From IMG/VR virus record IMGVR_UViG_2660238499_000008: a stretch of 14,754 nt of DNA; one strand, given 5' to 3'. This document shows, in pieces, positions 1,355-13,494 of this stretch (position 1 is its first letter; every line of letters starts with the position of its first letter). Under the pieces are notes generated by a model, which was not told where the DNA came from, searched no databases, and was given only the letters and a program-made list of their open reading frames with translations. The stretch is from a virus. Taxonomy: Duplodnaviria > Heunggongvirae > Uroviricota > Caudoviricetes. The position numbers and the translations under genes are program-made.

Positions 1355-2188
1355 ATGGCATTACCAAAAAGGAAATATTACTCGCTTGAAAAAGCAGCGA
1401 AAGAATTGGAATGTGATGTTGATGATTTGCTTCATTATGCATCTTTAGGAATTCTACAGATTTGTGTCTACATAGAAATAAATGAAGATGAGGGCCTCTC
1501 CGAATGCTTCATAGACTCTGATGTTGACGATGAATTACTCGAATCTCTTAGCAGTGATGTTGATCCAACTCCATTAAGATGGGCTACTGAGTTAAATTAT
1601 ATAGTAGAAGATGCAGGGTTTTTCCTTTTGTCGAGAAGAGATGATGATTGTGATTCAAAGATAAACTCAGCAGGGGGATTTTTTGCGCTCAATCATACTG
1701 AGCTATCTACTCCAAAATTTGAAAAAGATAGAAAAATCGAAGTTTTTTCTCTTGGGCACTTGAGAGAGCATTATCACATTGTCAGTGGCAATCAATTTGG
1801 CGGAAGCACGCCAGGATATGAGCCGGGAAGCATTCTTTTTTACAAGCCACGAAAATTCGAAATTCATGACTTTTGCATCACATTGCCTGAGCTAGAGTTA
1901 TTGAAAAAAGGCGGAGAAAATCTACTTCATTCTGCATTTGGTTATAATCACCGTTCCTCTGAACTAATCGGTAGGAAAAAAGAAAATTTCTCAAAGCATA
2001 AAGCTTCCCTAATCAGATCTCTCACTGAACTGGCTTTTGTAAAGGATGGCGGGATTTCAAAACTTTCAATGGAATCAATAGCGGATCAATTACAACGAAA
2101 ATTTATGGACGCAGAGATAGATTATGATGATTTAAGTCCTTCAAATTTAAGGAATTGGTTAGGTACTGGCAGAAAGGATAAAATTTAA
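1355..2188 (+). CDS. Hypothetical protein, AT-rich cargo gene; possible N-terminal HTH, acidic linker, C-terminal domain of unknown function
   Basis: 277-aa ORF with purine-rich RBS (gaaggtga) about 6 nt before the ATG. Visibly AT-rich and different in codon usage from flanking GC-rich genes. N-terminus (YSLEKAAKELECDVDDLLHYASLGILQ) loosely resembles excisionase/AlpA-type HTH (inference only). Long acidic stretch (DSDVDDELLESLSSDVD, RRDDDCD). No recognisable catalytic motif. Confidence 0.65.
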   Translation: MALPKRKYYSLEKAAKELECDVDDLLHYASLGILQICVYIEINEDEGLSECFIDSDVDDELLESLSSDVDPTPLRWATELNYIVEDAGFFLLSRRDDDCDSKINSAGGFFALNHTELSTPKFEKDRKIEVFSLGHLREHYHIVSGNQFGGSTPGYEPGSILFYKPRKFEIHDFCITLPELELLKKGGENLLHSAFGYNHRSSELIGRKKENFSKHKASLIRSLTELAFVKDGGISKLSMESIADQLQRKFMDAEIDYDDLSPSNLRNWLGTGRKDKI

Positions 2189-2940: not shown

Positions 2941-3774
2941 ATGAACATCGAAAAAAGCAGATTAATTTCTGAGGCCGCCCCTCATCTGAACGCCTATCAG
3001 GGCACAATTAACGGTAATGAATTTGCCGCAATTGTCCCGGTTATTCCTGGTCATATCGGTGGGCGTGAAACCAATATTGTTAGCGCAAAAGCGTTACACA
3101 AAGCGTTGGGCGTGGGAAAAGACTTCTCTACATGGATCACTGATCGCATCTCTGAATATGACTTCACCATTGGGCACGATTACTCAGTCCATAAAACAAT
3201 TTCCCCAAATCTGGGGAAAAGCCCGAATGGCGCGGCTTACAGCAAGATTAAACAGTCTGGCAGACCCGGCAAAGACTATCTGTTAAGTGTCGGAATGGCG
3301 AAAGAACTGGCAATGATCGAACGCACCGAACAGGGCCGCGCTATCCGCCGTTATTTCATCCAGTGCGAGGAAGAATTACAGCGTAGCGTGCCTGAAATCG
3401 CCGCCCGCTATCGTCGCCAGCTAAAAGCCCGTATCAGTGCCGCCAACCTGTTTAAACCGATGTGCGTAGCGCTGGAAAGCGCCCGCGCAGAACAGGGTAA
3501 ACAGACGCAGGCTCGCCACTACAGCAACGAGAGCAACATGATCGCCCGTATCGTGCTGGGTGGCATGACGGCGAAGCAGTGGGCGCAGGCAAATGGCATT
3601 ACTGGCGAACCACGGGACAGCATGAACGCAGCACAGCTTGAACACCTCGCCTATCTCGAAAGCACCAATATCACGTTAATTGATATGGGTATGGGATATG
3701 ACCTGCGTAAAGCCGAGCTAATCCGCCTCTCTCAGCGCTGGTTAGCTAAACATCTGGGGGCTAATCATGCTTAA
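2941..3774 (+). CDS. Phage antirepressor, AntA-like N-terminal domain plus KilA-C (ANT) C-terminal domain
   Basis: 277-aa ORF, RBS ggag 6-7 nt upstream. N-terminal segment (NIVSAKALHKALGVGKDFSTWITDRISEYDFTIGHDY) resembles the AntA domain. Central segment (GRPGKDYLLSVGMAKELAMIERTEQGRAIRRYFIQCEEEL) resembles the KilA-C antirepressor domain. Confidence 0.82.
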   Translation: MNIEKSRLISEAAPHLNAYQGTINGNEFAAIVPVIPGHIGGRETNIVSAKALHKALGVGKDFSTWITDRISEYDFTIGHDYSVHKTISPNLGKSPNGAAYSKIKQSGRPGKDYLLSVGMAKELAMIERTEQGRAIRRYFIQCEEELQRSVPEIAARYRRQLKARISAANLFKPMCVALESARAEQGKQTQARHYSNESNMIARIVLGGMTAKQWAQANGITGEPRDSMNAAQLEHLAYLESTNITLIDMGMGYDLRKAELIRLSQRWLAKHLGANHA

Positions 3775-6077: not shown

Positions 6078-6419
6078 ATGATTACTAAAAATTTCCGACT
6101 GAATGCGCTGGCGAATAAGTATGCGTCGGCACTGTATAACCACATTACCTCCACCAGCGGCGGTGACTATTTCATGGTTGATGCGGACGGCCTCGCCGTC
6201 CGTGTGGAAATCGTCAATGGAGTAAAAGGCTTTCGCAGCCTGATCGATAGCTACACACTGGCAGCCATGAAAGTGTCCTACCCGCAGTGGGAAACCGTGG
6301 GGATCGCGCTTCTTGAGCGTTGCGTCACTAAGGACGGATTAACTGACGTCGGGCGCGAGATATGGCAAAGCATGGTTAAAGACATGGGCGCGACCGTGGC
6401 AGGGGGCAACCATGCGTAA
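6078..6419 (+). CDS. Hypothetical protein
   Basis: 113-aa ORF with strong RBS (gaggggg); its stop overlaps the primase start (ATGCGTAA). Confidence 0.6.
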   Translation: MITKNFRLNALANKYASALYNHITSTSGGDYFMVDADGLAVRVEIVNGVKGFRSLIDSYTLAAMKVSYPQWETVGIALLERCVTKDGLTDVGREIWQSMVKDMGATVAGGNHA

Positions 6420-9177
6420 TATCGATCTTATCCGCGAAGTGACCAGTGCCGCCGCCGGGCGCTGGCCTTATGTGCTGGCTGGATTGTCTATCGACGTGCC
6501 TGATTCATCGCGCCGCCATTCTCCATGCCCTGCATGTGGTGGAAAAGACCGTTTCAGATTCGACGACAACGGGCGCGGTAGCTTTATCTGCAATCAGTGT
6601 GGCGCTGGTGACGGTTTAGACCTGATTAAGAAGGTGAACAACTGCGACACTACGGAGGCGGCACAGCTTGCCGCTGATGTGCTGGGTATTGATTACCGGG
6701 CAGCGCAAACCGACCCGGTGGCAGCGAGCCATAGAAGAGAGCAACTGGAAGCTGACCGCCAGCAGCGTGAGCAGGAGCGCCAGAAACAGGCAGCAGAGGA
6801 TGCAGAGCAGCGAAGGGCTACGTTTGCCCGTCTGTATGCCGGAATGCGCCAGAGTGCCACACAGGGAGAATCTGATTACCTGCAATCAAAAGGGCTGACC
6901 GGGTTTAACTATCCGGTTATGCCGGATGGTTCGTTATTGCTGGAGCTGGTGGACGAATCCGGCGCAGTGGCAGCAGCGCAAACCATTACACCGCAGGGAG
7001 AGAAGCGACTCCTGACAGGTTCAGCAAAGCGCGGGGCATATCACGCCGTAAACGCACCAGAACAGCCGCAGAGCGTATTAATTGCCGAGGGGCTGGCGAC
7101 GGCCCTGTCCGTTCACCTGATGCGCCCGGACGCGCTTACAGTGGCGGCAATTGACGCCGGGAACCTGATCCACGTTGCCGGAGTAATGCGCCGGAAACAC
7201 CCGCAGTCGCAAATTATCATTGCCGCAGATAACGACCACCAGCAGGACGAACAGGCGAACACGGGCAAAGATGCCGCAGAGAAAGCCGCCTTATCCGTGG
7301 CTGGCTGGGTGGCGCTGCCGCCGACAGACTACAAAGCCGACTGGGACGACTACCGCCAGCAAAACGGGCTGGAAGTCGCTACGGCTGCGTTTAACGATTC
7401 GATGTACCAGATTCAGGGGGAAGCCGTGAAACCGCGATTGCAAGCCATTGAGGGCGGTAAAACTGACCATCCAGAGAAAGACCCACTAAAACCCCACATT
7501 GAGAGCCGAAAAGATGGCGTTTTCTGGGTAACGCCGAAGGTGGACAAGGAAAGCGGGGAGATCATCAACGCTGAAAGCTGGTTATGTTCACCGCTGGAGG
7601 TTATCGGCACGGGACGCGACGACAAAGATCAGTATCTTATTATCTCATGGCTGGCATTTGGTGCAGGCATACCGACAACAGCGGCTATCCCGCTGGCTGA
7701 TATTGGCGAGCGTGAAGGCTGGCGCACCCTGAAAGCTGGTGGCGTCAACGTCACAACGAAAAACAGCCTACGGGCGATTCTTGCCGACTGGTTACAGCGA
7801 AGCGGCTCGCGTGAATTGTGGCGCGTTGCTCATGCTACAGGCTGGCAGTGCGGGGCATACATCATGCCGGACGGGGAAATCATCGGCACACCTGAGCGGC
7901 CTGTTTTGTTCAGCGGGCGCAGTTCAGCCGCTGCCGGGTATACCGTAGCAGGAACGTCGGAAAGCTGGCGTAACAGTGTTGCGCGGCTGGCATACGGTAA
8001 TTACGCGATGATGACAGGCATCGCCGCAGCACTGGCAGCGCCATTAATCGGGGTGGCAGATCGTGACGGATTCGGGATTCATTTTTATGAGCAATCGAGC
8101 GCCGGGAAAACAACCACGCAGAACGTGGCGAGCAGTCTATACGGCAACCCTGATGCCTTGCGCCTGACGTGGTACGGGACGGCGCTGGGGCTGATAAACG
8201 AGGCCGCCGCCCACAATGACGGGCTGATGCCACTGGATGAAGTCGGACAGGGCGCTGACCCGATAAGCGTTTCTCAGTCTGCCTATGCCCTGTTTAACGG
8301 CGTGGGGAAATTGCAGGGAGCAAAGGAAGGAGGCAACCGGGATCTGAAACGCTGGCGCACCGTGGCAATCAGCACCGGGGAAGTGGACTTAGAAACCTTC
8401 ATCGCCACCGCCGGACGCAAGACCAAAGCCGGGCAACTGGTGCGCTTGCTGAATATCCCGTTAAGTAAGGCGGTGCGCTTTCATGAACACCAGACAGGGA
8501 AAGAACACGCCGACGCGCTGAAAGATGCTTATCAGCACCATCATGGCGCTGCCGGGAGGGAGTGGATCAGATGGCTTTCAGACCACCAGCAACAGGCGAT
8601 TGATGTCGTTCGTGAGTGTGAAGCCCGCTGGCGCAGTCTAATCCCTGCCGACTATGGGGAACAGGTTCACCGTGTAGGGGCAAGATTTGCCATTCTGGAG
8701 GCCGCTTTACTGATGGGTGGCGTGGTTACTGGCTGGGATGCTCAAACGTGCCGGGATGCGATACAGCACGCCTATAACGCATGGCTAAAAGAGTTCGGCA
8801 CGGGGAACAAAGAGCACCAGCAGATCATCGAGCAGGCGGAGGCATTTTTAAATGCCTATGGCCTGAGTCGATTCGCGCCGCTGCCTTACGACCCCGCCAG
8901 CCTGCCGATTCATAATCTGGCTGGATACAGGCAGCGCGGAAATCATGACGATTCACCGATAACGTTTTACACGTTCCCCGACACTTTCGATAAGGATATT
9001 GCTAAGGGGTTTAACAGGCAGCAGGTGGCCCGCGTCCTGAAAGAATCGGGGATGCTTACCCCTTCAGCAGACGGAAAAAAATTTCAGAGGAAAAGCCCGC
9101 GCATTCAGGGGAGGCAGATTAACGTTTACGTTTTGCAATTCCTGCCGGATGGGGAGGAAAGCCAGCCAGGGCAATAA
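6412..9177 (+). CDS. Replicative primase-helicase (P4 alpha-like): N-terminal zinc ribbon, TOPRIM domain, C-terminal Walker-A/B NTPase
   Basis: 921-aa ORF. Zinc-ribbon CPACGG...FICNQCG near the N-terminus. TOPRIM-like acidic motifs (IAEGLATA; IIAADNDHQQDE). Walker A-like SSAGKTT and Walker B-like LMPLDEV in the C-terminal half. Immediately followed by an iteron array. Confidence 0.9.
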   Translation: MRNIDLIREVTSAAAGRWPYVLAGLSIDVPDSSRRHSPCPACGGKDRFRFDDNGRGSFICNQCGAGDGLDLIKKVNNCDTTEAAQLAADVLGIDYRAAQTDPVAASHRREQLEADRQQREQERQKQAAEDAEQRRATFARLYAGMRQSATQGESDYLQSKGLTGFNYPVMPDGSLLLELVDESGAVAAAQTITPQGEKRLLTGSAKRGAYHAVNAPEQPQSVLIAEGLATALSVHLMRPDALTVAAIDAGNLIHVAGVMRRKHPQSQIIIAADNDHQQDEQANTGKDAAEKAALSVAGWVALPPTDYKADWDDYRQQNGLEVATAAFNDSMYQIQGEAVKPRLQAIEGGKTDHPEKDPLKPHIESRKDGVFWVTPKVDKESGEIINAESWLCSPLEVIGTGRDDKDQYLIISWLAFGAGIPTTAAIPLADIGEREGWRTLKAGGVNVTTKNSLRAILADWLQRSGSRELWRVAHATGWQCGAYIMPDGEIIGTPERPVLFSGRSSAAAGYTVAGTSESWRNSVARLAYGNYAMMTGIAAALAAPLIGVADRDGFGIHFYEQSSAGKTTTQNVASSLYGNPDALRLTWYGTALGLINEAAAHNDGLMPLDEVGQGADPISVSQSAYALFNGVGKLQGAKEGGNRDLKRWRTVAISTGEVDLETFIATAGRKTKAGQLVRLLNIPLSKAVRFHEHQTGKEHADALKDAYQHHHGAAGREWIRWLSDHQQQAIDVVRECEARWRSLIPADYGEQVHRVGARFAILEAALLMGGVVTGWDAQTCRDAIQHAYNAWLKEFGTGNKEHQQIIEQAEAFLNAYGLSRFAPLPYDPASLPIHNLAGYRQRGNHDDSPITFYTFPDTFDKDIAKGFNRQQVARVLKESGMLTPSADGKKFQRKSPRIQGRQINVYVLQFLPDGEESQPGQ

Positions 9178-9201
9178 TCTTTTTCACGTGCGAGGTTTTT
9201 T

Positions 9202-9462
9202 GTGGTGGTTCAGGTGGTTCAGGTGGTTCAGTAAGTAATTGTTATTGATTTATAATGTTTTTTTGTAAGAAATTGAACCACCACTGAACCACCAAACGGG
9301 TATTTTGAACCACCAGAGAGAAACGGATTATTTTCACTGGCTGGCAGTGAACCACCAAGAAGGGCGACTGAACCACCAGATAAATTTAAAAGGTGGTTCA
9401 GCAAAACCCAGAGTTGGCGCGGCCTAGAGGGGTACTGAACCACCTGAACCACCTGAACCACC
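9202..9462. repeat. Iteron-type origin of replication: 12 copies of the 8-bp core GGTGGTTC / GAACCACC
   Basis: Three tandem 9-bp units GTGGTTCAG at 9205-9231 (forward). AT-rich spacer at about 9232-9272. Six dispersed copies (9274-9282, 9284-9293, 9306-9314, 9347-9356, 9368-9377 reverse; 9392-9401 forward). Three tandem reverse units at 9436-9462, followed by a T-rich/AT tract. Position directly after the primase-helicase gene matches P4 ori/crr-type logic. Confidence 0.82.
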
Positions 9463-9566
9463 AACTTTTTTGTTTATATACCAATAAATCTGGCGAAGGT
9501 GTCCCACAATAAGACGGAGCCGGGTAATCTTCATTAGCAAAACTAATAATTCGAGGTATTCGCAAA

Positions 9567-10028
9567 ATGACAGCACAGATATCAGCCTACGGGCGTTTAG
9601 TCGCAGACCCCCAGACCCGCACCACAACGAACGGTGCAAGCATGGCAATGGGACGGTTAGCGGTGGCACTGCCCTGCCATGCAGCAGAGGGCGGAGAGGT
9701 TACTTTCTGGCTGGGCGTGGTGGCATTCGGCAAACAGGCCGACGCACTGGCAGGACACGTTAAAGGCGATTTAGTCAGTGTTGCCGGAGCGATGCAGATC
9801 AATCAGTGGACGGGCAAGGATGGCGGTACACAGCAAGGTTATCAGGTAGTGGCCGACAGCGTGATCAGCGCCAGAACGGTACGCCCCGGCGGGAAGCGGG
9901 CCGAATCAGTCAAAGCAAGCGGAGCCAGCAGGGGCCACACAACACAATCCGCGCCGGGATGGGAGTTATATAATACCCCTGATGATTTTGACCAACGCCC
10001 ACCATTCGACGATGAAACGCCATTCTGA
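9567..10028 (+). CDS. ssb: Single-stranded DNA-binding protein (SSB), OB-fold with acidic C-terminal tail
   Basis: 153-aa ORF. N-terminal half aligns by eye with bacterial SSB OB-fold (GRLVADPQTRTTTNG; WLGVVAFGKQADALAGHVKGDLVSVAGAMQINQWT). Gly/Ser-rich linker and C-terminal ...FDDETPF resembling the SSB D-D-D-I-P-F tail. Confidence 0.88.
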   Translation: MTAQISAYGRLVADPQTRTTTNGASMAMGRLAVALPCHAAEGGEVTFWLGVVAFGKQADALAGHVKGDLVSVAGAMQINQWTGKDGGTQQGYQVVADSVISARTVRPGGKRAESVKASGASRGHTTQSAPGWELYNTPDDFDQRPPFDDETPF

Positions 10029-10038
10029 GAGGGAAGAT

Positions 10039-10680
10039 ATGAGTACACAACCCACCATTATCGAGTTAGGCAGCTATCGCTGGCCCAGACATCTCGCAAT
10101 ACACGAAGCAGGTCATGCGATAGCCGCATGGTTTTTCGGCATACAGGAGGTAGAAATTGCGTTATCGGGTAATAACCGAGTGGCAAAAACCTACCTTAGC
10201 GGCGATGTTGATGAGTGTGGAGCCGTCGCGGTATGGCACGCCAACTATCCACGGAATGTGGCTGAGGTTAAGTCTTACACCCTCTCGAACGATGACGCCA
10301 GATTACGTCTGATAGACCAGGTATGCCGGGATATGGTTATCTCTCTGGCTGGTATCGTCGCGCAATCACGCTATACGGGGGATGATATTAACGCACTGAT
10401 GGAAACGTCCGGGAAAGCAGACATGAAAAATGTTCGTGATTTATCAGAGGTATACCGGGTGGCTGGTGGAGAGGATGCTGATATACAGAGAATATCACTT
10501 TCCCGTGCTGAGGCGCTGATTGCCCTGAAATGGTGGGATGTTATCGCGCTGGCGAAAATACTGGAGAACCGTAACCATATGCCTGCCAGAAACTTCCAGC
10601 GCATTATGGGTGATATTGACAAGCCTGTACCAAAGCCTATGACGCTGGCTGAACTGGATGAATTGGTGGGTGAAGAATGA
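10039..10680 (+). CDS. Putative zinc metallopeptidase (HExxH motif; ImmA/IrrE-like or FtsH-like HEAGH)
   Basis: 213-aa ORF from ATG at 10039 (RBS gagggaag). Motif LAIHEAGHAIAAW encoded at about 10093-10131 (HEAGH at 10102-10116). Family not resolved and third metal ligand not identified. Confidence 0.55.
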   Translation: MSTQPTIIELGSYRWPRHLAIHEAGHAIAAWFFGIQEVEIALSGNNRVAKTYLSGDVDECGAVAVWHANYPRNVAEVKSYTLSNDDARLRLIDQVCRDMVISLAGIVAQSRYTGDDINALMETSGKADMKNVRDLSEVYRVAGGEDADIQRISLSRAEALIALKWWDVIALAKILENRNHMPARNFQRIMGDIDKPVPKPMTLAELDELVGEE

Positions 10681-11027
10681 AGCCATACATTCTGGCAGCC
10701 GTCCTGATCTCATCGGCACCGGCACTATCTGCTATCCATTGTGGGGGCTTTACTATACAGCCAGACCGTTATCGGACAACGATTAACGGCGATGTGGTTC
10801 ATATTGTTGATGCGCAATTTTACGGCGCACCGCGAGACTTTAGCCAGGCCGCCATAAAGTTATTGCCGGATGCCATTACCACTACCGACAGGCAATACCG
10901 ACTGGAGACGCAGGGAAGCAATGCCTTGCTTGAGTTGATGACCAGAGAAAACCCGCCACGTGTGCTTAATCGTGAGCGCTGCGATGCCGGGCTAACAGGC
11001 TTTTACTGGTACTCGTCTGTGCCGTGA
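10677..11027 (+). CDS. Small exported protein with N-terminal signal peptide
   Basis: 116-aa ORF; start overlaps the stop of the HExxH gene (ATGA). N-terminus MKPYILAAVLISSAPALSA has a positive n-region, hydrophobic core and AxA-like cleavage site. Confidence 0.6.
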   Translation: MKPYILAAVLISSAPALSAIHCGGFTIQPDRYRTTINGDVVHIVDAQFYGAPRDFSQAAIKLLPDAITTTDRQYRLETQGSNALLELMTRENPPRVLNRERCDAGLTGFYWYSSVP

Positions 11028-11096
11028 GGTTCGCACCGAACGCAGGCTAAAATTCTAGACTGTTCTTGACAGATTTTAAACCCAAGTAGCGCTAAA

Positions 11097-11195
11097 CCCG
11101 CGCCAGCAGAGGGCTGGAAACCAGAGCGTGATTTAGGTCGTCCAGAATATTCTGGTTCGCGCCACTGGTACGCAGTACGCAGTCAGGTACGCAGC
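11097..11195 (+). promoter_or_regulatory. Regulatory module copy A: CTGGAAACCAG dyad, perfect 14-bp palindrome CCAGAATATTCTGG, and three GTACGCAG heptamer repeats
   Basis: CTGGAAACCAG at 11114-11124; CCAGAATATTCTGG at 11142-11155; (G)TACGCAG at 11168-11175, 11176-11182 and 11187-11194. About 50 bp upstream of the TerS-like gene. About 85 bp is recognisably duplicated at 11692-11776. Confidence 0.5.
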
Positions 11196-11241
11196 AAAAC
11201 CGCGCATTCAGTTAGGTTTTTTGCGCACAGTGAGCCGTTAA

Positions 11242-11619
11242 ATGAAAAAAAATAGCCAACAATCAAGATCCGGATGGGGTGGCAAGCGGAAAGGCGCAGG
11301 CGCACCGTTGGGCAATACTAATGCCGTCAAACATGGCGAACGCAGTAGGCGGGCATTCTTCCCGTTTGAGGGAGAAGATGCGCTTTCTCCGCTGGTGCGA
11401 AATCGTGCAAGAAACCTCATGATGGCTGAGAGATACGGGCTATTACTGGCGACTAATCCGACGCCGGGAACAGAAGAATGGCGCGAGATGACATTGATTA
11501 ACGGACTCATGGGGCTACATGCCGACAGAATCGCACGGCTTGAGCTGAGTTTAGCGAGATCCGTTTCAATGCAAGCAAGGCGGGATCTGCGAAGGGTTAA
11601 AAAAAACGGCGCATGTTAG
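11242..11619 (+). CDS. Small basic protein with GxPxGNxNAxKHG motif; possible terminase small-subunit-like / packaging-redirecting protein
   Basis: 125-aa ORF. N-terminus GGKRKGAGAPLGNTNAVKHGERS resembles a motif I associate with phage small-terminase-family proteins (recalled, not verified). No large terminase or capsid genes in the element. Confidence 0.5.
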   Translation: MKKNSQQSRSGWGGKRKGAGAPLGNTNAVKHGERSRRAFFPFEGEDALSPLVRNRARNLMMAERYGLLLATNPTPGTEEWREMTLINGLMGLHADRIARLELSLARSVSMQARRDLRRVKKNGAC

Positions 11620-11691
11620 CAATCCGTATAGTCACCGATGTTGAAATACTGGACTGTACTGGACAGACTCAAAGCCCATATGAAGAGAGAA

Positions 11692-11866
11692 CCGCGCCAG
11701 TAGCGGGCTGGAAGCCATATTCGATTTAGGCAGTCCAAAATATTCTGGCTCGCGCCATTGGTTCGCAGTGCGCAAAATAGTGCGCAATTTACAGTAAAAT
11801 ACGCATATTATTTCGCATTCATTTTTGCGCACCGTTCGCAGTTAATGCGCAGTAATTCGCAGGAGG
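11692..11866 (+). promoter_or_regulatory. Regulatory module copy B: diverged duplicate of module A, extended by an array of at least 8 TNCGCA(G) repeats and ending in a strong RBS
   Basis: 11692-11776 aligns by eye with 11097-11181 (roughly three-quarters identity), with the palindrome degenerated to CCAAAATATTCTGG at 11735-11748. Between 11761 and 11860 are repeated ttcgcag / tgcgcaa / ttgcgca / atgcgcag / attcgcag elements. AGGAGG at 11861-11866. Confidence 0.5.
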
Positions 11867-11873
11867 CCCGCCA

Positions 11874-12485
11874 GTGAGAGACAGAACGCGCAGCTATATC
11901 ACCGACCTGCCCCGTATAGGGTTGCCATTCCTTGCGAACATGCGTAGCAGGCTGGCGGACGCCGAACCGGGGACGCAGCTTTATACCCAGACCGAAAGCG
12001 GAACGTTGTATACCTTCCGGCAAGCCGACAGCTACGCCATGACAATCAACGGCGTTACACGGGCAATCAGAACCACGACCACACAAGCCGGGTATGGTGT
12101 GCGGGAATGGTACGTCTGTCCCCACTGCATAAAGCGGGTAGCGAAGCTGTATATCGGCAAAAAAGATATTGGCTGCCGGGGATGCTGGAAACTCCACTAT
12201 AAAAGCCAGAGCGCCGACAGACTGGACAGGATGCGAATGAAGATACGCCAGCAGCGATGCGCGATATGGGGAAGCAATGACCTTGCCAATAATCTGTTTA
12301 ATGACATTCGCATGTTCCCAAAACCAAAGGGGATGCGCTGGGCTACGTTTGACAGGAAGCGGGCAGAGTTATCAGTTATGGAGATGGCTTACTGGCAGGC
12401 ATTCAGTCCGGTAGTAGATAGAATCAGGGGCATGGTTGAGCGTAAGACGGGGAAAGCAGCCAGAGGCATTGGCCTGACTTTGTAA
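11874..12485 (+). CDS. Hypothetical protein with C4 zinc-ribbon (CPHC...CRGC)
   Basis: 203-aa ORF starting at GTG 11874, 7 nt after a perfect AGGAGG (alternative ATG at 11939). CxxC pairs CPHC and CRGC separated by 16 residues. Preceded by regulatory module B. A 6-bp stem hairpin follows the stop (about 12489-12505) but has no U-tract. Confidence 0.65.
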   Translation: MRDRTRSYITDLPRIGLPFLANMRSRLADAEPGTQLYTQTESGTLYTFRQADSYAMTINGVTRAIRTTTTQAGYGVREWYVCPHCIKRVAKLYIGKKDIGCRGCWKLHYKSQSADRLDRMRMKIRQQRCAIWGSNDLANNLFNDIRMFPKPKGMRWATFDRKRAELSVMEMAYWQAFSPVVDRIRGMVERKTGKAARGIGLTL

Positions 12486-12902: not shown

Positions 12903-13134
12903 ATATGGGATTATTCCACATGTAACTATACGAGCAATCAGCCCATTAGCTGCCTGCGTGGGAAAGGCACCACCCCGGCGGAAAACTCAGGCGGCTTGCA
13001 TGGTTACAATGAATTGCTATTACAGGCCAGAGAGTCTGATAATCCTGAGCAGGCCGAGATCCACAATTTCCTGATGCTGGATATTGAACGCCGGGTTTAC
13101 GACCTGAGCCGCATCAACGGCAGATTGCAGGCTA

Positions 13135-13494
13135 TTAACTGACCCGCATGTATTCACCTGATATTGCGTTATCAGCGCCGCCATTATCGCGCACAACGGC
13201 ACATTGACCGGGTAAACCGTAGCGAACGACCGTTGCGTTAGTTTTACCGCCACGCTTTACCTGACGAGATTCATACACTGTCACACGTTCCAGCAGCCCC
13301 CCGGCAACCATGCTTTCAAGAGTTCGCCGGGTGGATTCGAGCGGGTGGCGCTTATCGAACGACACCATGCCATGAAGAAGGTAGGCCACGCCCGACACAT
13401 CGAACGGCGGCGCACCAATCTCACCTGTCACCCATTCGAGGTTATCCGGCTCAAAGTAGCTGAGTATCTCTTTTTTGCGGCTGGTCATTCTCAT
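13135..13494 (-). CDS. Hypothetical protein, convergent to the rest of the element; possible winged-helix-like segment
   Basis: 119-aa ORF, the only convincing minus-strand gene. RBS aaggaa upstream of the ATG. Segment HPLESTRRTLESMVAGGLLERV is reminiscent of a recognition helix/wing, which is speculative. Confidence 0.5.
   Translation of the reverse strand: MRMTSRKKEILSYFEPDNLEWVTGEIGAPPFDVSGVAYLLHGMVSFDKRHPLESTRRTLESMVAGGLLERVTVYESRQVKRGGKTNATVVRYGLPGQCAVVRDNGGADNAISGEYMRVS

Follow-up and report, generated by a model that had tools for sequence, protein, structure and literature searches.

Satellites that carry a cos or pac site of their helper phage are already known. They include the Staphylococcus aureus pathogenicity island (SaPI) SaPIbov5, P4, the Escherichia coli island EcCICFT073 with its cos1 and cos2 sites (PMC6092414, PMC6739421), and the phage-inducible chromosomal island-like element (PLE) with its 14-bp mimic of a pac sequence of phage ICP1 (10.1101/2024.04.22.590561). 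The two latter elements are the precedents for satellite mimicry of a helper packaging signal. The subject of the present analysis is an island contained in the IMG/VR virus record IMGVR_UViG_2660238499_000008, a stretch of 14,754 nucleotides, which is referred to below, at its full length, as the window. Judged by its gene order, which is that of the Gram-negative phage-inducible chromosomal islands (PICIs) EcCICFT073 and EcCIMP1, the island is a PICI-type phage satellite. Two related non-coding modules, located on either side of a gene for a 125-aa protein, carry arrays of the short repeat TNCGCA, and matching arrays were found inside the genes for the small terminase subunit (TerS) of several tailed phages. 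We consider it somewhat probable that the island arrays mimic TerS recognition repeats and would represent a decoy pac site, by means of which island DNA is loaded into helper capsids. In comparison with the described satellites, the new features are the multi-copy array of short units, the mixture of variants in it, the duplication of the cassette and its pairing with a possible TerS paralogue devoid of the helix-turn-helix (HTH).

EcCICFT073 is a satellite of the same type and is syntenic with the island, possessing genes of integrase, alpA, Icd/Ash, primase, single-stranded DNA-binding protein (SSB) and PerC, followed by the packaging region (PMC6092414, PMC6739421). In both elements, two copies of the known or candidate packaging signal surround a small gene after PerC. 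EcCICFT073 encodes Rpp, a small satellite protein related to the helper TerS, which was proposed to redirect packaging (PMC6739421); the 125-aa protein is its hypothetical parallel, but it is not a homologue of Rpp. The signals are different, too. EcCICFT073 contains two exact cosN copies in inverted orientation, whereas no λ cosQ or cosN is present in the window, the modules are direct repeats, and the signal consists of heptamer arrays like those in terS of pac-type phages.

PLE resembles the island, as interpreted here, in that it copies the helper pac sequence and encodes proteins acting on the terminase (10.1101/2024.04.22.590561). However, the PLE mimic is a single 14-bp sequence verified by transduction, whereas the candidate mimic in the window consists of duplicated multi-copy arrays of mixed variants, and the host and phage groups of PLE are unrelated to those of the island. 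The pac site of phage P1 contains the hexamers TGATCA/G, and phage SPP1 has pacL and pacR boxes that are bound by its TerS, G1P. These sites, like the arrays as interpreted here, comprise several short direct repeats as the TerS recognition region, located in or beside terS; the motif is different, and its role in TerS recognition is a putative one in the HK639- and GZ7-type phages and in the island. PMC6092414 cites SaPIbov5 and SaPIbov4 (two cos sites) as cos SaPIs. SaPIs are similar to the island, as interpreted here, in having a packaging signal beside a terS-like gene and in the occurrence of duplicated signals, but the SaPI TerS is complete and reads a SaPI-specific pac, whereas the 125-aa protein has no identifiable DNA-binding domain and the signal resembles that of the presumed helper.

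The closest experimentally studied element in gene content is EcCIMP1 (PMC11773190), which shares AntA, DUF4222, Ash/Icd, the TOPRIM-DUF927 primase, PerC, a 61-aa protein and pRiA4b-ORF3. Its PerC, 61-aa, pRiA4b-ORF3 and 119-aa genes are common to the family of the window. In contrast to the island, EcCIMP1 contains no module, no TNCGCA arrays and no 125-aa gene, and its proven helper is the P22-like phage Kapi1 with a different TerS (PMC11773190). The spacer after PerC in EcCIMP1 (locus L454, E. coli MP1, 2121-2417) is unrelated and contains no TNCGCA array. Since the region after PerC contains cos sites in EcCICFT073, TNCGCA arrays in the island and something else in EcCIMP1, it looks like a packaging-specificity slot of these satellites.

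TNCGCA arrays and matching repeats in phage terS genes

Array A (11168..11228, plus strand) comprises three GTACGCAG units (11168, 11175 and 11187) and a TGCGCA (11222), which are the proposed TerS-recognition (pac-mimic) repeats. Array B (11761..11862, plus strand) includes nine TNCGCA units, four TTCGCA, four TGCGCA and one TACGCA, and extends into the ribosome-binding site of the next gene. The TNCGCA motifs themselves start on the plus strand at 11169, 11176, 11188 and 11222 in module A and at 11762, 11769, 11781, 11800, 11812, 11826, 11835, 11846 and 11856 in module B, in agreement with the first-pass annotation of this DNA, which reported three repeats upstream and at least eight downstream. 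The two non-coding stretches, with one further motif at 11030, hold 14 of the 24 forward-strand TNCGCA motifs of the window, against 1.17 ± 1.06 (maximum 7) in 2000 dinucleotide-preserving shuffles. All non-palindromic units are oriented as the genes. The modules contain the fixed triplet TNCGCAG-TNCGCAG-(T/C)CAGG-TNCGCAG, in which N varies freely, and one related locus (L070) has a non-coding stretch of about 450 bp full of the motif.

A motif scan of IMG/VR was carried out with the pattern GGTNCGCAGTNCGCAG, taken from the island array. Besides island relatives, it returned a recurrent phage sequence, which was identified as terS of HK639, a lambdoid phage, and of its relatives, namely SEN34 and several Klebsiella phages. 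The link to phages came from this motif scan alone and not from the BLAST search with the whole module, which gave no match at E <= 0.01 and only chance matches at E <= 10 among 50,697 phage genomes. In HK639, six of the 18 forward GTNCGCA motifs of the genome lie within 177 bp of terS, in the orientation of the gene, forming the densest cluster in 49.6 kb. The island array and HK639 terS have in common the CTGG-TACGCA start, the 7-bp doublet and the 12-bp spacing ..CAGGTACGCA.., and (G)GTNCGCA units with the same orientation and the 7- and 12-bp spacings are also present in terS of SEN34, GZ7 and Klebsiella phages. Within the module, a match to phage terS loci was obtained with the array only: positions 11175-11200 agree with the terS repeat cluster at 23 of 26 nt. 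In terS of the HK639, SEN34 and GZ7 types, the arrays are located just past the region encoding the N-terminal HTH.

The repeat units of HK639 terS occur in all three reading frames, as read from the sequence. The GZ7-type TerS has an N-terminal HTH as in the HK639 type and a different C-terminal part, and its gene contains four to seven GGTACGCA units past the HTH-coding region in two reading frames. In five phages with 80-98% nucleotide identity, the Val-Arg codons GTA-CGC are invariant at three repeat sites; at the fourth site CGC is kept and the Val codon is GTA or GTC, while adjacent codons vary synonymously. The location of the units in different reading frames and the invariance of synonymous sites show that it is the DNA and not the protein that is constrained. 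The linker peptide of TerS appears to be dictated by the DNA signal inside terS: the GGTACGCA units encode the peptide LVRKQEVRKQVRNE in HK639 (locus L288, 224-401) and the low-complexity peptide WVRNSGTQVRKNGTQSGTQ in Klebsiella phage GZ7 (locus L293, 1030-1100). The proteins of HK639 include TerL (a weak Terminase_6N match), a DUF4055 portal and a Mu-F-like head protein, a set which we take to be that expected of a headful packager. We infer that the terS repeat cluster is the pac site of these phages. As a separate observation, the first 55 nt of HK639 terS (MAKPDWEAIE...) have an 89% match to unannotated DNA of numerous E. coli genomes, strains B, C and E2348/69 among them; this DNA may be the remnant of a cryptic prophage terS.

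The repeats are identical within each phage, and between phages they change together with the recognition helix of TerS. The helices GISEGAIRKRAK and GVTEGAIRKRAK (EGAIRKRAK) are accompanied by the repeat GGTACGCA, the helix GISDTAIRKRAK (SDTAIRKRAK) by three copies of GGTTCGCA, arising from three parallel synonymous changes of GTA to GTT, and the helix GISHQAISKRAK (SHQAISKRAK) by three copies of GGTTGCCA. An independent scan with GGTTCGCA-N4-9-GGTTCGCA yielded 119 loci, 13 of which have the repeat just 3' of a TerS-type HTH; all 13 read [DE]TAI/VRK[RK]A and belong to phages of 44-62% GC. Such co-variation is expected if the TerS HTH reads the repeats, i.e., if the recognition part of pac is located inside terS. 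In phages P22 and SPP1, pac recognition is located inside terS. No description of TerS recognition repeats that lie within terS and co-evolve with the HTH was found in the searchable literature, and a literature search for the repeat motif returned primers only.

Similar arrays were also detected in a set of GC-rich islands that share with the window just a P4-type integrase (27% identity) and a DUF927 helicase (33%). Their GGTTCGCA/TGCGCA arrays (locus L244, about 1590-1745, minus strand; locus L195, about 7918-8090) are split by an intrinsic terminator and are located immediately ahead of a ParB-N + N6_N4 methylase gene. The use of GGTTCGCA in these arrays matches that in the GC-rich phages of the DT class.

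Structure of the duplicated module and the 125-aa gene

Module A (11046..11241, plus strand) occupies the entire intergenic cassette from the 116-aa gene to the 125-aa gene (nhmmer E = 8e-63; 79% identity to module B). Module B (11640..11845, plus strand; nhmmer E = 2e-66) is the second cassette copy, located between the 125-aa gene and the zinc-ribbon (Zn-ribbon) gene, and its array continues to 11862. Alignment of 11041-11240 against 11640-11873 with MAFFT gave 79% mean column identity. A separate repeat search (find_repeats) showed the modules to be direct repeats spaced by about 594 bp, with three blocks in register: 74 nt (73% identity), 52 nt (87%) and 24 nt (83%). This upholds the duplication claimed in the first-pass annotation and its pair of modules, but not the start assigned to them, as the homology begins about 50 bp further upstream. 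The duplication is not peculiar to the window and is kept in E. coli genomes and further loci. Of 5426 complete E. coli genomes, 51 possess the module, the median number of places in a genome being two; it was also found in about 40 further metagenome or genome loci, including Shimwellia and Enterobacter. Among the relatives, the first module copy always starts about 20 bp past the stop codon of PerC or the 116-aa gene.

The module includes four parts in the following order: a phased direct repeat, a conserved core, the fixed TNCGCA triplet and a variable further array. The 10-bp-phased tandem direct repeat is TTCTAGACTG/TTCTTGACAG at the 5' end of module A (11053..11072, plus strand) and TACTGGACTG/TACTGGACAG in module B (11647..11666, plus strand), so the two modules of one island are unlike in this part. 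It is present at the 5' end of every module, and its variable three to four bases change concertedly in both halves between islands, as in the variants TTTAGTACTG/TTTAGTACGG and ATAGGACTAC/ATAGGACGGA. The forms include TCTGGAC/CCTGGAC, TTAGTAC/TTAGTAC and ATAGGAC/ATAGGAC; outside the window, the repeat was noted at about 3010-3030 of locus L003 and about 12190-12215 of locus L104. The phased repeat looks like a binding site with evolving specificity.

The core CGCGCCAG..GGGCTGGAA..GATTTAGG..CCAGAATATTCTGG..TTCGCGCCACTG of module A (11099..11167, plus strand) is the most conserved block in 28 diverse copies, and across copies it reads CGCGCCAG..GGGCTGGAA..GATTTAGG..GTCCaAAATATTCtGG..TTCGCGCCAcTGG. 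The 14-bp palindrome CCAGAATATTCTGG (11142..11155) is perfect in module A and is represented by the degenerate CCAAAATATTCTGG (11735..11748) in module B, just as was first described. The prominence given to this palindrome, however, finds no support. It is perfect in only two of the 51 distinct copies, those of the window and its 99.9% twin, and degenerate in the other 49, hence dyad symmetry is not a conserved feature; the conserved string at this site is GTCCaAAATATTCtGG. The 5' part of the module demonstrated no homology with the HTH-coding part of terS by nhmmer or blastn-short, and a similarity of WKPE and KPDWE noticed by eye between the module 5' part and terS was dismissed as not collinear. 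The spacings of a LexA box, the P2 Ogr/P4 Delta site TGT-N12-ACA and a sigma-54 site, compared by eye, do not fit the modules.

The second module copy is linked to the 125-aa gene (11242-11619, plus strand). When module copies were counted by their 5' type, 25 loci possessed two copies, all 25 with the 125-aa gene between them; 19 loci had one copy and no 125-aa gene, and seven loci, which are truncated contigs or have a degenerate first copy, had one copy with the gene. Islands without the 125-aa gene contain a single 5' part, then a TNCGCA array running up to the Zn-ribbon gene, which follows it directly. In one of them (locus L004, 3001-3206), the single module combines an A-type 5' part with a B-type array. 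It appears to be a deletion or pre-insertion form derived by recombination of the direct repeats A and B. A variant of the second module copy was also observed, in which three to seven units of a variable-number tandem repeat, CAGCGACC, occur in place of the TNCGCA array upstream of a DUF6979 gene (L005, 3910-3933; L126, 202-233; L158, 253-300; L166, 8300-8347). This tandem repeat may be an alternative specificity array.

The family of the 125-aa protein extends across Enterobacterales with about 108 clusters, none of which has a name or a Pfam domain. It is characterised by the invariant motif GWGGKRxGAGAPxGNxNAVKHGERS, the GAPxGNxNAVKHG part of which gives weak matches to TerS models: PHROG 1889 (E = 0.0026) and NCBIfam NF040601 (E = 6.6e-4), over some 20-25 residues and far under the NCBIfam cut-off. 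In a single BLASTP comparison, residues 24-69 aligned with residues 109-160 of GZ7 TerS (42% identity over 52 aa, E = 6e-5), a part located past the HTH and the repeat-encoded linker. Since the alignment begins just past the linker encoded by the repeats, the order of the array and the putative TerS core in the island is collinear with that in phage terS. No HTH was detected in the 125-aa protein, residues 1-37 are predicted to be disordered, and the AlphaFold model (AF2) includes a disordered N-terminus and only a helical hairpin modelled with confidence. A Foldseek search of the PDB with this model gave nothing specific, and the sequence comparison with the PDB revealed no match to RppC and no Rpp homology. 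The name "TerS-like", given to this gene at first, is weakly supported by the matches to TerS models and the GZ7 TerS core and by the hhalign comparison; the Foldseek search was uninformative. As the similarity is weak, the protein is treated here as a putative TerS core without a DNA-binding domain.

Proposed packaging route and competing explanations

The repeats in phage terS are most likely the sites bound by the TerS HTH to start headful (pac) packaging. If the island arrays imitate them, the island would replicate from its own origin once the helper is induced, and a helper TerS of the HK639/GZ7 HTH class would bind arrays A and B as its own pac and recruit TerL; headful packaging would then run in the gene direction on the island concatemer. 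The mixture of A, T and G at position N, especially in array B, could widen the range of helper TerS specificities. The 125-aa protein, as a TerS core without the DNA-binding domain, may join or perturb the helper TerS ring in an Rpp-like manner. The module together with the 125-aa gene would make up a cassette, which would account for the duplication; homologous recombination between two direct copies would allow the gene to be gained or lost, and a pair of arrays separated by 600 bp would be harmless under headful packaging. Packaging recognition was also suggested in the first-pass annotation, by analogy with cosB-type regions. The terS arrays and the HTH co-variation favour this suggestion as regards the TNCGCA arrays, but because cosN is not present the appropriate analogy is a pac within terS and not λ cosB. 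The λ cosN GGGCGGCGACCT was not found in or near the modules at up to three mismatches, and the matches across the window were at chance level.

Several observations speak against packaging mimicry. The most conserved part of the module, its 5' 120 bp, comprising the phased direct repeat, CGCGCCAG..GGGCTGGAA, GATTTAGG and AAATATTC, has no counterpart in phage terS loci. As mimicry leaves it unexplained, this part probably has regulatory or promoter functions or is a site of terminase-complex assembly or cutting. Compared with the phage arrays, those of the satellite show greater degeneracy, with a mixed N and the flanking GG often missing; they abut ribosome-binding sites and are always located ahead of genes, which also fits an operator or leader function. 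The 125-aa protein resembles TerS weakly (E = 0.018 in a profile comparison by hhalign, which aligned the region also found by BLASTP). Three specificity classes underlie the co-variation of repeats and helices, and part of it is due to linkage within diverged alleles. Published pac mapping of HK639- or GZ7-type phages was not found in the searchable literature. Few complete E. coli genomes, about nine, contain an HK639-type terS, and the GZ7 type is present in 113-137 of 5426. The island and a GZ7-type terS are found together in one genome (SCU-308) among the matches listed (40 of 137); for the full lists, about 1.3 such genomes would be expected by chance, hence no enrichment of helper terS co-residence can be claimed.

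A rather doubtful alternative is that the modules are duplicated promoter or operator regions of late or accessory genes, in which a regulator of the satellite or of the helper (AlpA-, PerC-, Xis- or Cox-like) binds the repeats and the core and thereby co-induces the 125-aa and Zn-ribbon genes after helper induction. Co-regulated promoters activated by a helper or by AlpA were the other suggestion of the first-pass annotation, given as an alternative to packaging recognition or in combination with it. The module lies directly upstream of a gene each time, its array ends at the ribosome-binding site, and PerC or its 116-aa replacement always precedes the first copy. The spacer downstream of PerC in EcCICFT073 resembles a terminator and a promoter with inverted repeats, the concerted variation of the phased direct repeat is reminiscent of a transcription-factor site, and the GC-rich relatives carry their arrays around an intrinsic terminator ahead of a gene. 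Direct-repeat arrays are typical of Xis/Cox-type proteins, and the Cox boxes of P2 activate P_LL of P4. However, modules A and B of one island have different direct repeats, which speaks against a single common regulator, and a consensus scan, which activator-dependent promoters would escape, revealed no plus-strand sigma-70-like site in either module. It found only a leftward TTTAAA-17-TAGAAT overlapping the direct repeat; a weak CA(A/G/T)AAT element resembling a -10 box can be read from the alignment in the palindrome region. PerC as the module binder gains no support, as the same module is present in the window, where PerC is replaced by a non-homologous 116-aa protein, and as the direct repeat is not the same in the two modules. 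The AlpA element of P. aeruginosa, GGGACGN5GGTA, is unrelated (PMC7969949). The regulatory explanation also leaves the identical arrays in phage terS and the HTH co-variation unaccounted for, and it competes with packaging mimicry only in part, since a promoter role of the 5' part is compatible with the latter. Alternatively, the arrays could be what is left of a captured and decaying terS, with the linker followed by the TerS core as the 125-aa reading frame, and the duplication could be a functionless recombination scar. The array, the GNxNAxKHG motif and the helices are collinear with GZ7 terS, and the modules do act as recombination substrates, judging by the L004 chimera and the strict linkage of the second copy to the 125-aa gene. 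This origin seems improbable, because the arrays are kept and even expanded to 9-20 non-coding units in islands otherwise diverged to 60-80%, they equally precede the unrelated Zn-ribbon gene and the methylase gene in the GC-rich islands, and their strict single orientation and conserved spacing (7 and 12) argue for selection.

Two further explanations are very unlikely. The modules might be replication elements, iterons of the island primase-helicase, like the P4 ori/crr with its two 120-bp direct repeats. P4 crr, which is also mentioned in PMC6092414, is a direct-repeat pair carrying iterons, and the GC-rich islands, which have only the integrase and the DUF927 helicase in common with the window, also possess arrays. 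This identity was rejected, since a complete iteron origin with another repeat, GGTGGTTCAG/CTGAACCACC flanking an AT-rich stretch, was located directly 3' of the primase gene at 9200-9465, a region containing no TNCGCA, and no origin motif was found in the modules. The origin includes three GGTGGTTCAG (9204-9231), an AT-rich spacer, eight inverted CTGAACCACC (9273-9464) and a further GGTGGTTCAG at 9392, and its iteron resembles the P4 type I iteron TGTTCACC. There is equally little reason to expect a structured RNA, whether a leader, a small RNA or a riboswitch-like element. Conserved non-coding sequence upstream of genes and local inverted repeats (CCAGC..GCTGG and the palindrome) would suit it, but RNAalifold with 28 diverse copies gave weak energies and no covariation on either strand, single-sequence folds did not exceed shuffles in stability (z-scores between -1.2 and +0.1), no Rfam match was obtained at E <= 1, and the palindrome is not maintained.

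Packaging mimicry can be extended to a more general, tentative proposal. A widespread class of TerS with the recognition helix xxAIRKRAK may read the 8-mer array GGTNCGCA or GGTTGCCA in its own gene by the code EG to A, [DE]T to T and HQ..S to TGCC. Enterobacterial PICIs and GC-rich DUF927 islands would then carry long mixed arrays that make them packageable by several helper lineages at once, with the HTH-less TerS paralogue retargeting the terminase. If true, the range of helpers could be predicted from sequence, and phages, satellites or cosmid-like vectors could be reprogrammed in their pac specificity.

Gene content of the island and meaning for satellite mobilisation

The window is 99.9% identical to E. 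coli S43, where the island is located between yicC and dinD. The island begins with a tyrosine integrase gene (1-1260), which is followed by genes for an AlpA-type HTH protein, an AntA antirepressor and an Ash/Icd-like protein, and then by the gene for a Zn-ribbon/Toprim/DUF927 primase (6412-9177). Next to the origin, the SSB gene (9567-10028) precedes two genes, encoding 232 and 116 aa. The 116-aa gene (10677-11027) occupies the PerC slot; in most relatives the gene just ahead of module A encodes a PerC-family regulator, and the 116-aa protein has no detectable similarity to PerC. Downstream of module B, a gene on the plus strand (11874-12485) encodes a 203-aa CxxC..CxxC (Zn-ribbon) protein. 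This protein has no Pfam, PHROG, NCBIfam or PADLOC match, and every one of its 82 homologue clusters in Enterobacterales is named hypothetical. The neighbouring genes of the modules gave no match to defence-system models. A few small genes make up the end of the island ahead of dinD. At about 12930-13142 of the window (locus L001, 14931-15143), RefSeq annotates a pseudogene fragment, "IS1096 element passenger TnpR family" (pRiA4b ORF-3-like), and relatives possess an intact 543-nt version of this gene.

Few packaging routes have been worked out for Gram-negative satellites, namely λ-type cos with Rpp, the formation of capsids by PICIs, P4 cos and the pac mimic of PLE. A recognisable packaging module is missing from many PICIs, among them the EcCIMP1-like "type C" elements. 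If the arrays are pac mimics, this would explain the mobilisation of a common island family of Enterobacterales, and the candidate helpers would be prophages of the HK639, SEN34 and GZ7 types, which are common in Klebsiella and E. coli. It would also provide a link between a TerS helix and a DNA repeat that can be read from sequence and used to predict or engineer transduction specificity. For the phages themselves, it seems that a DNA signal located within terS can dictate the linker of the TerS protein.

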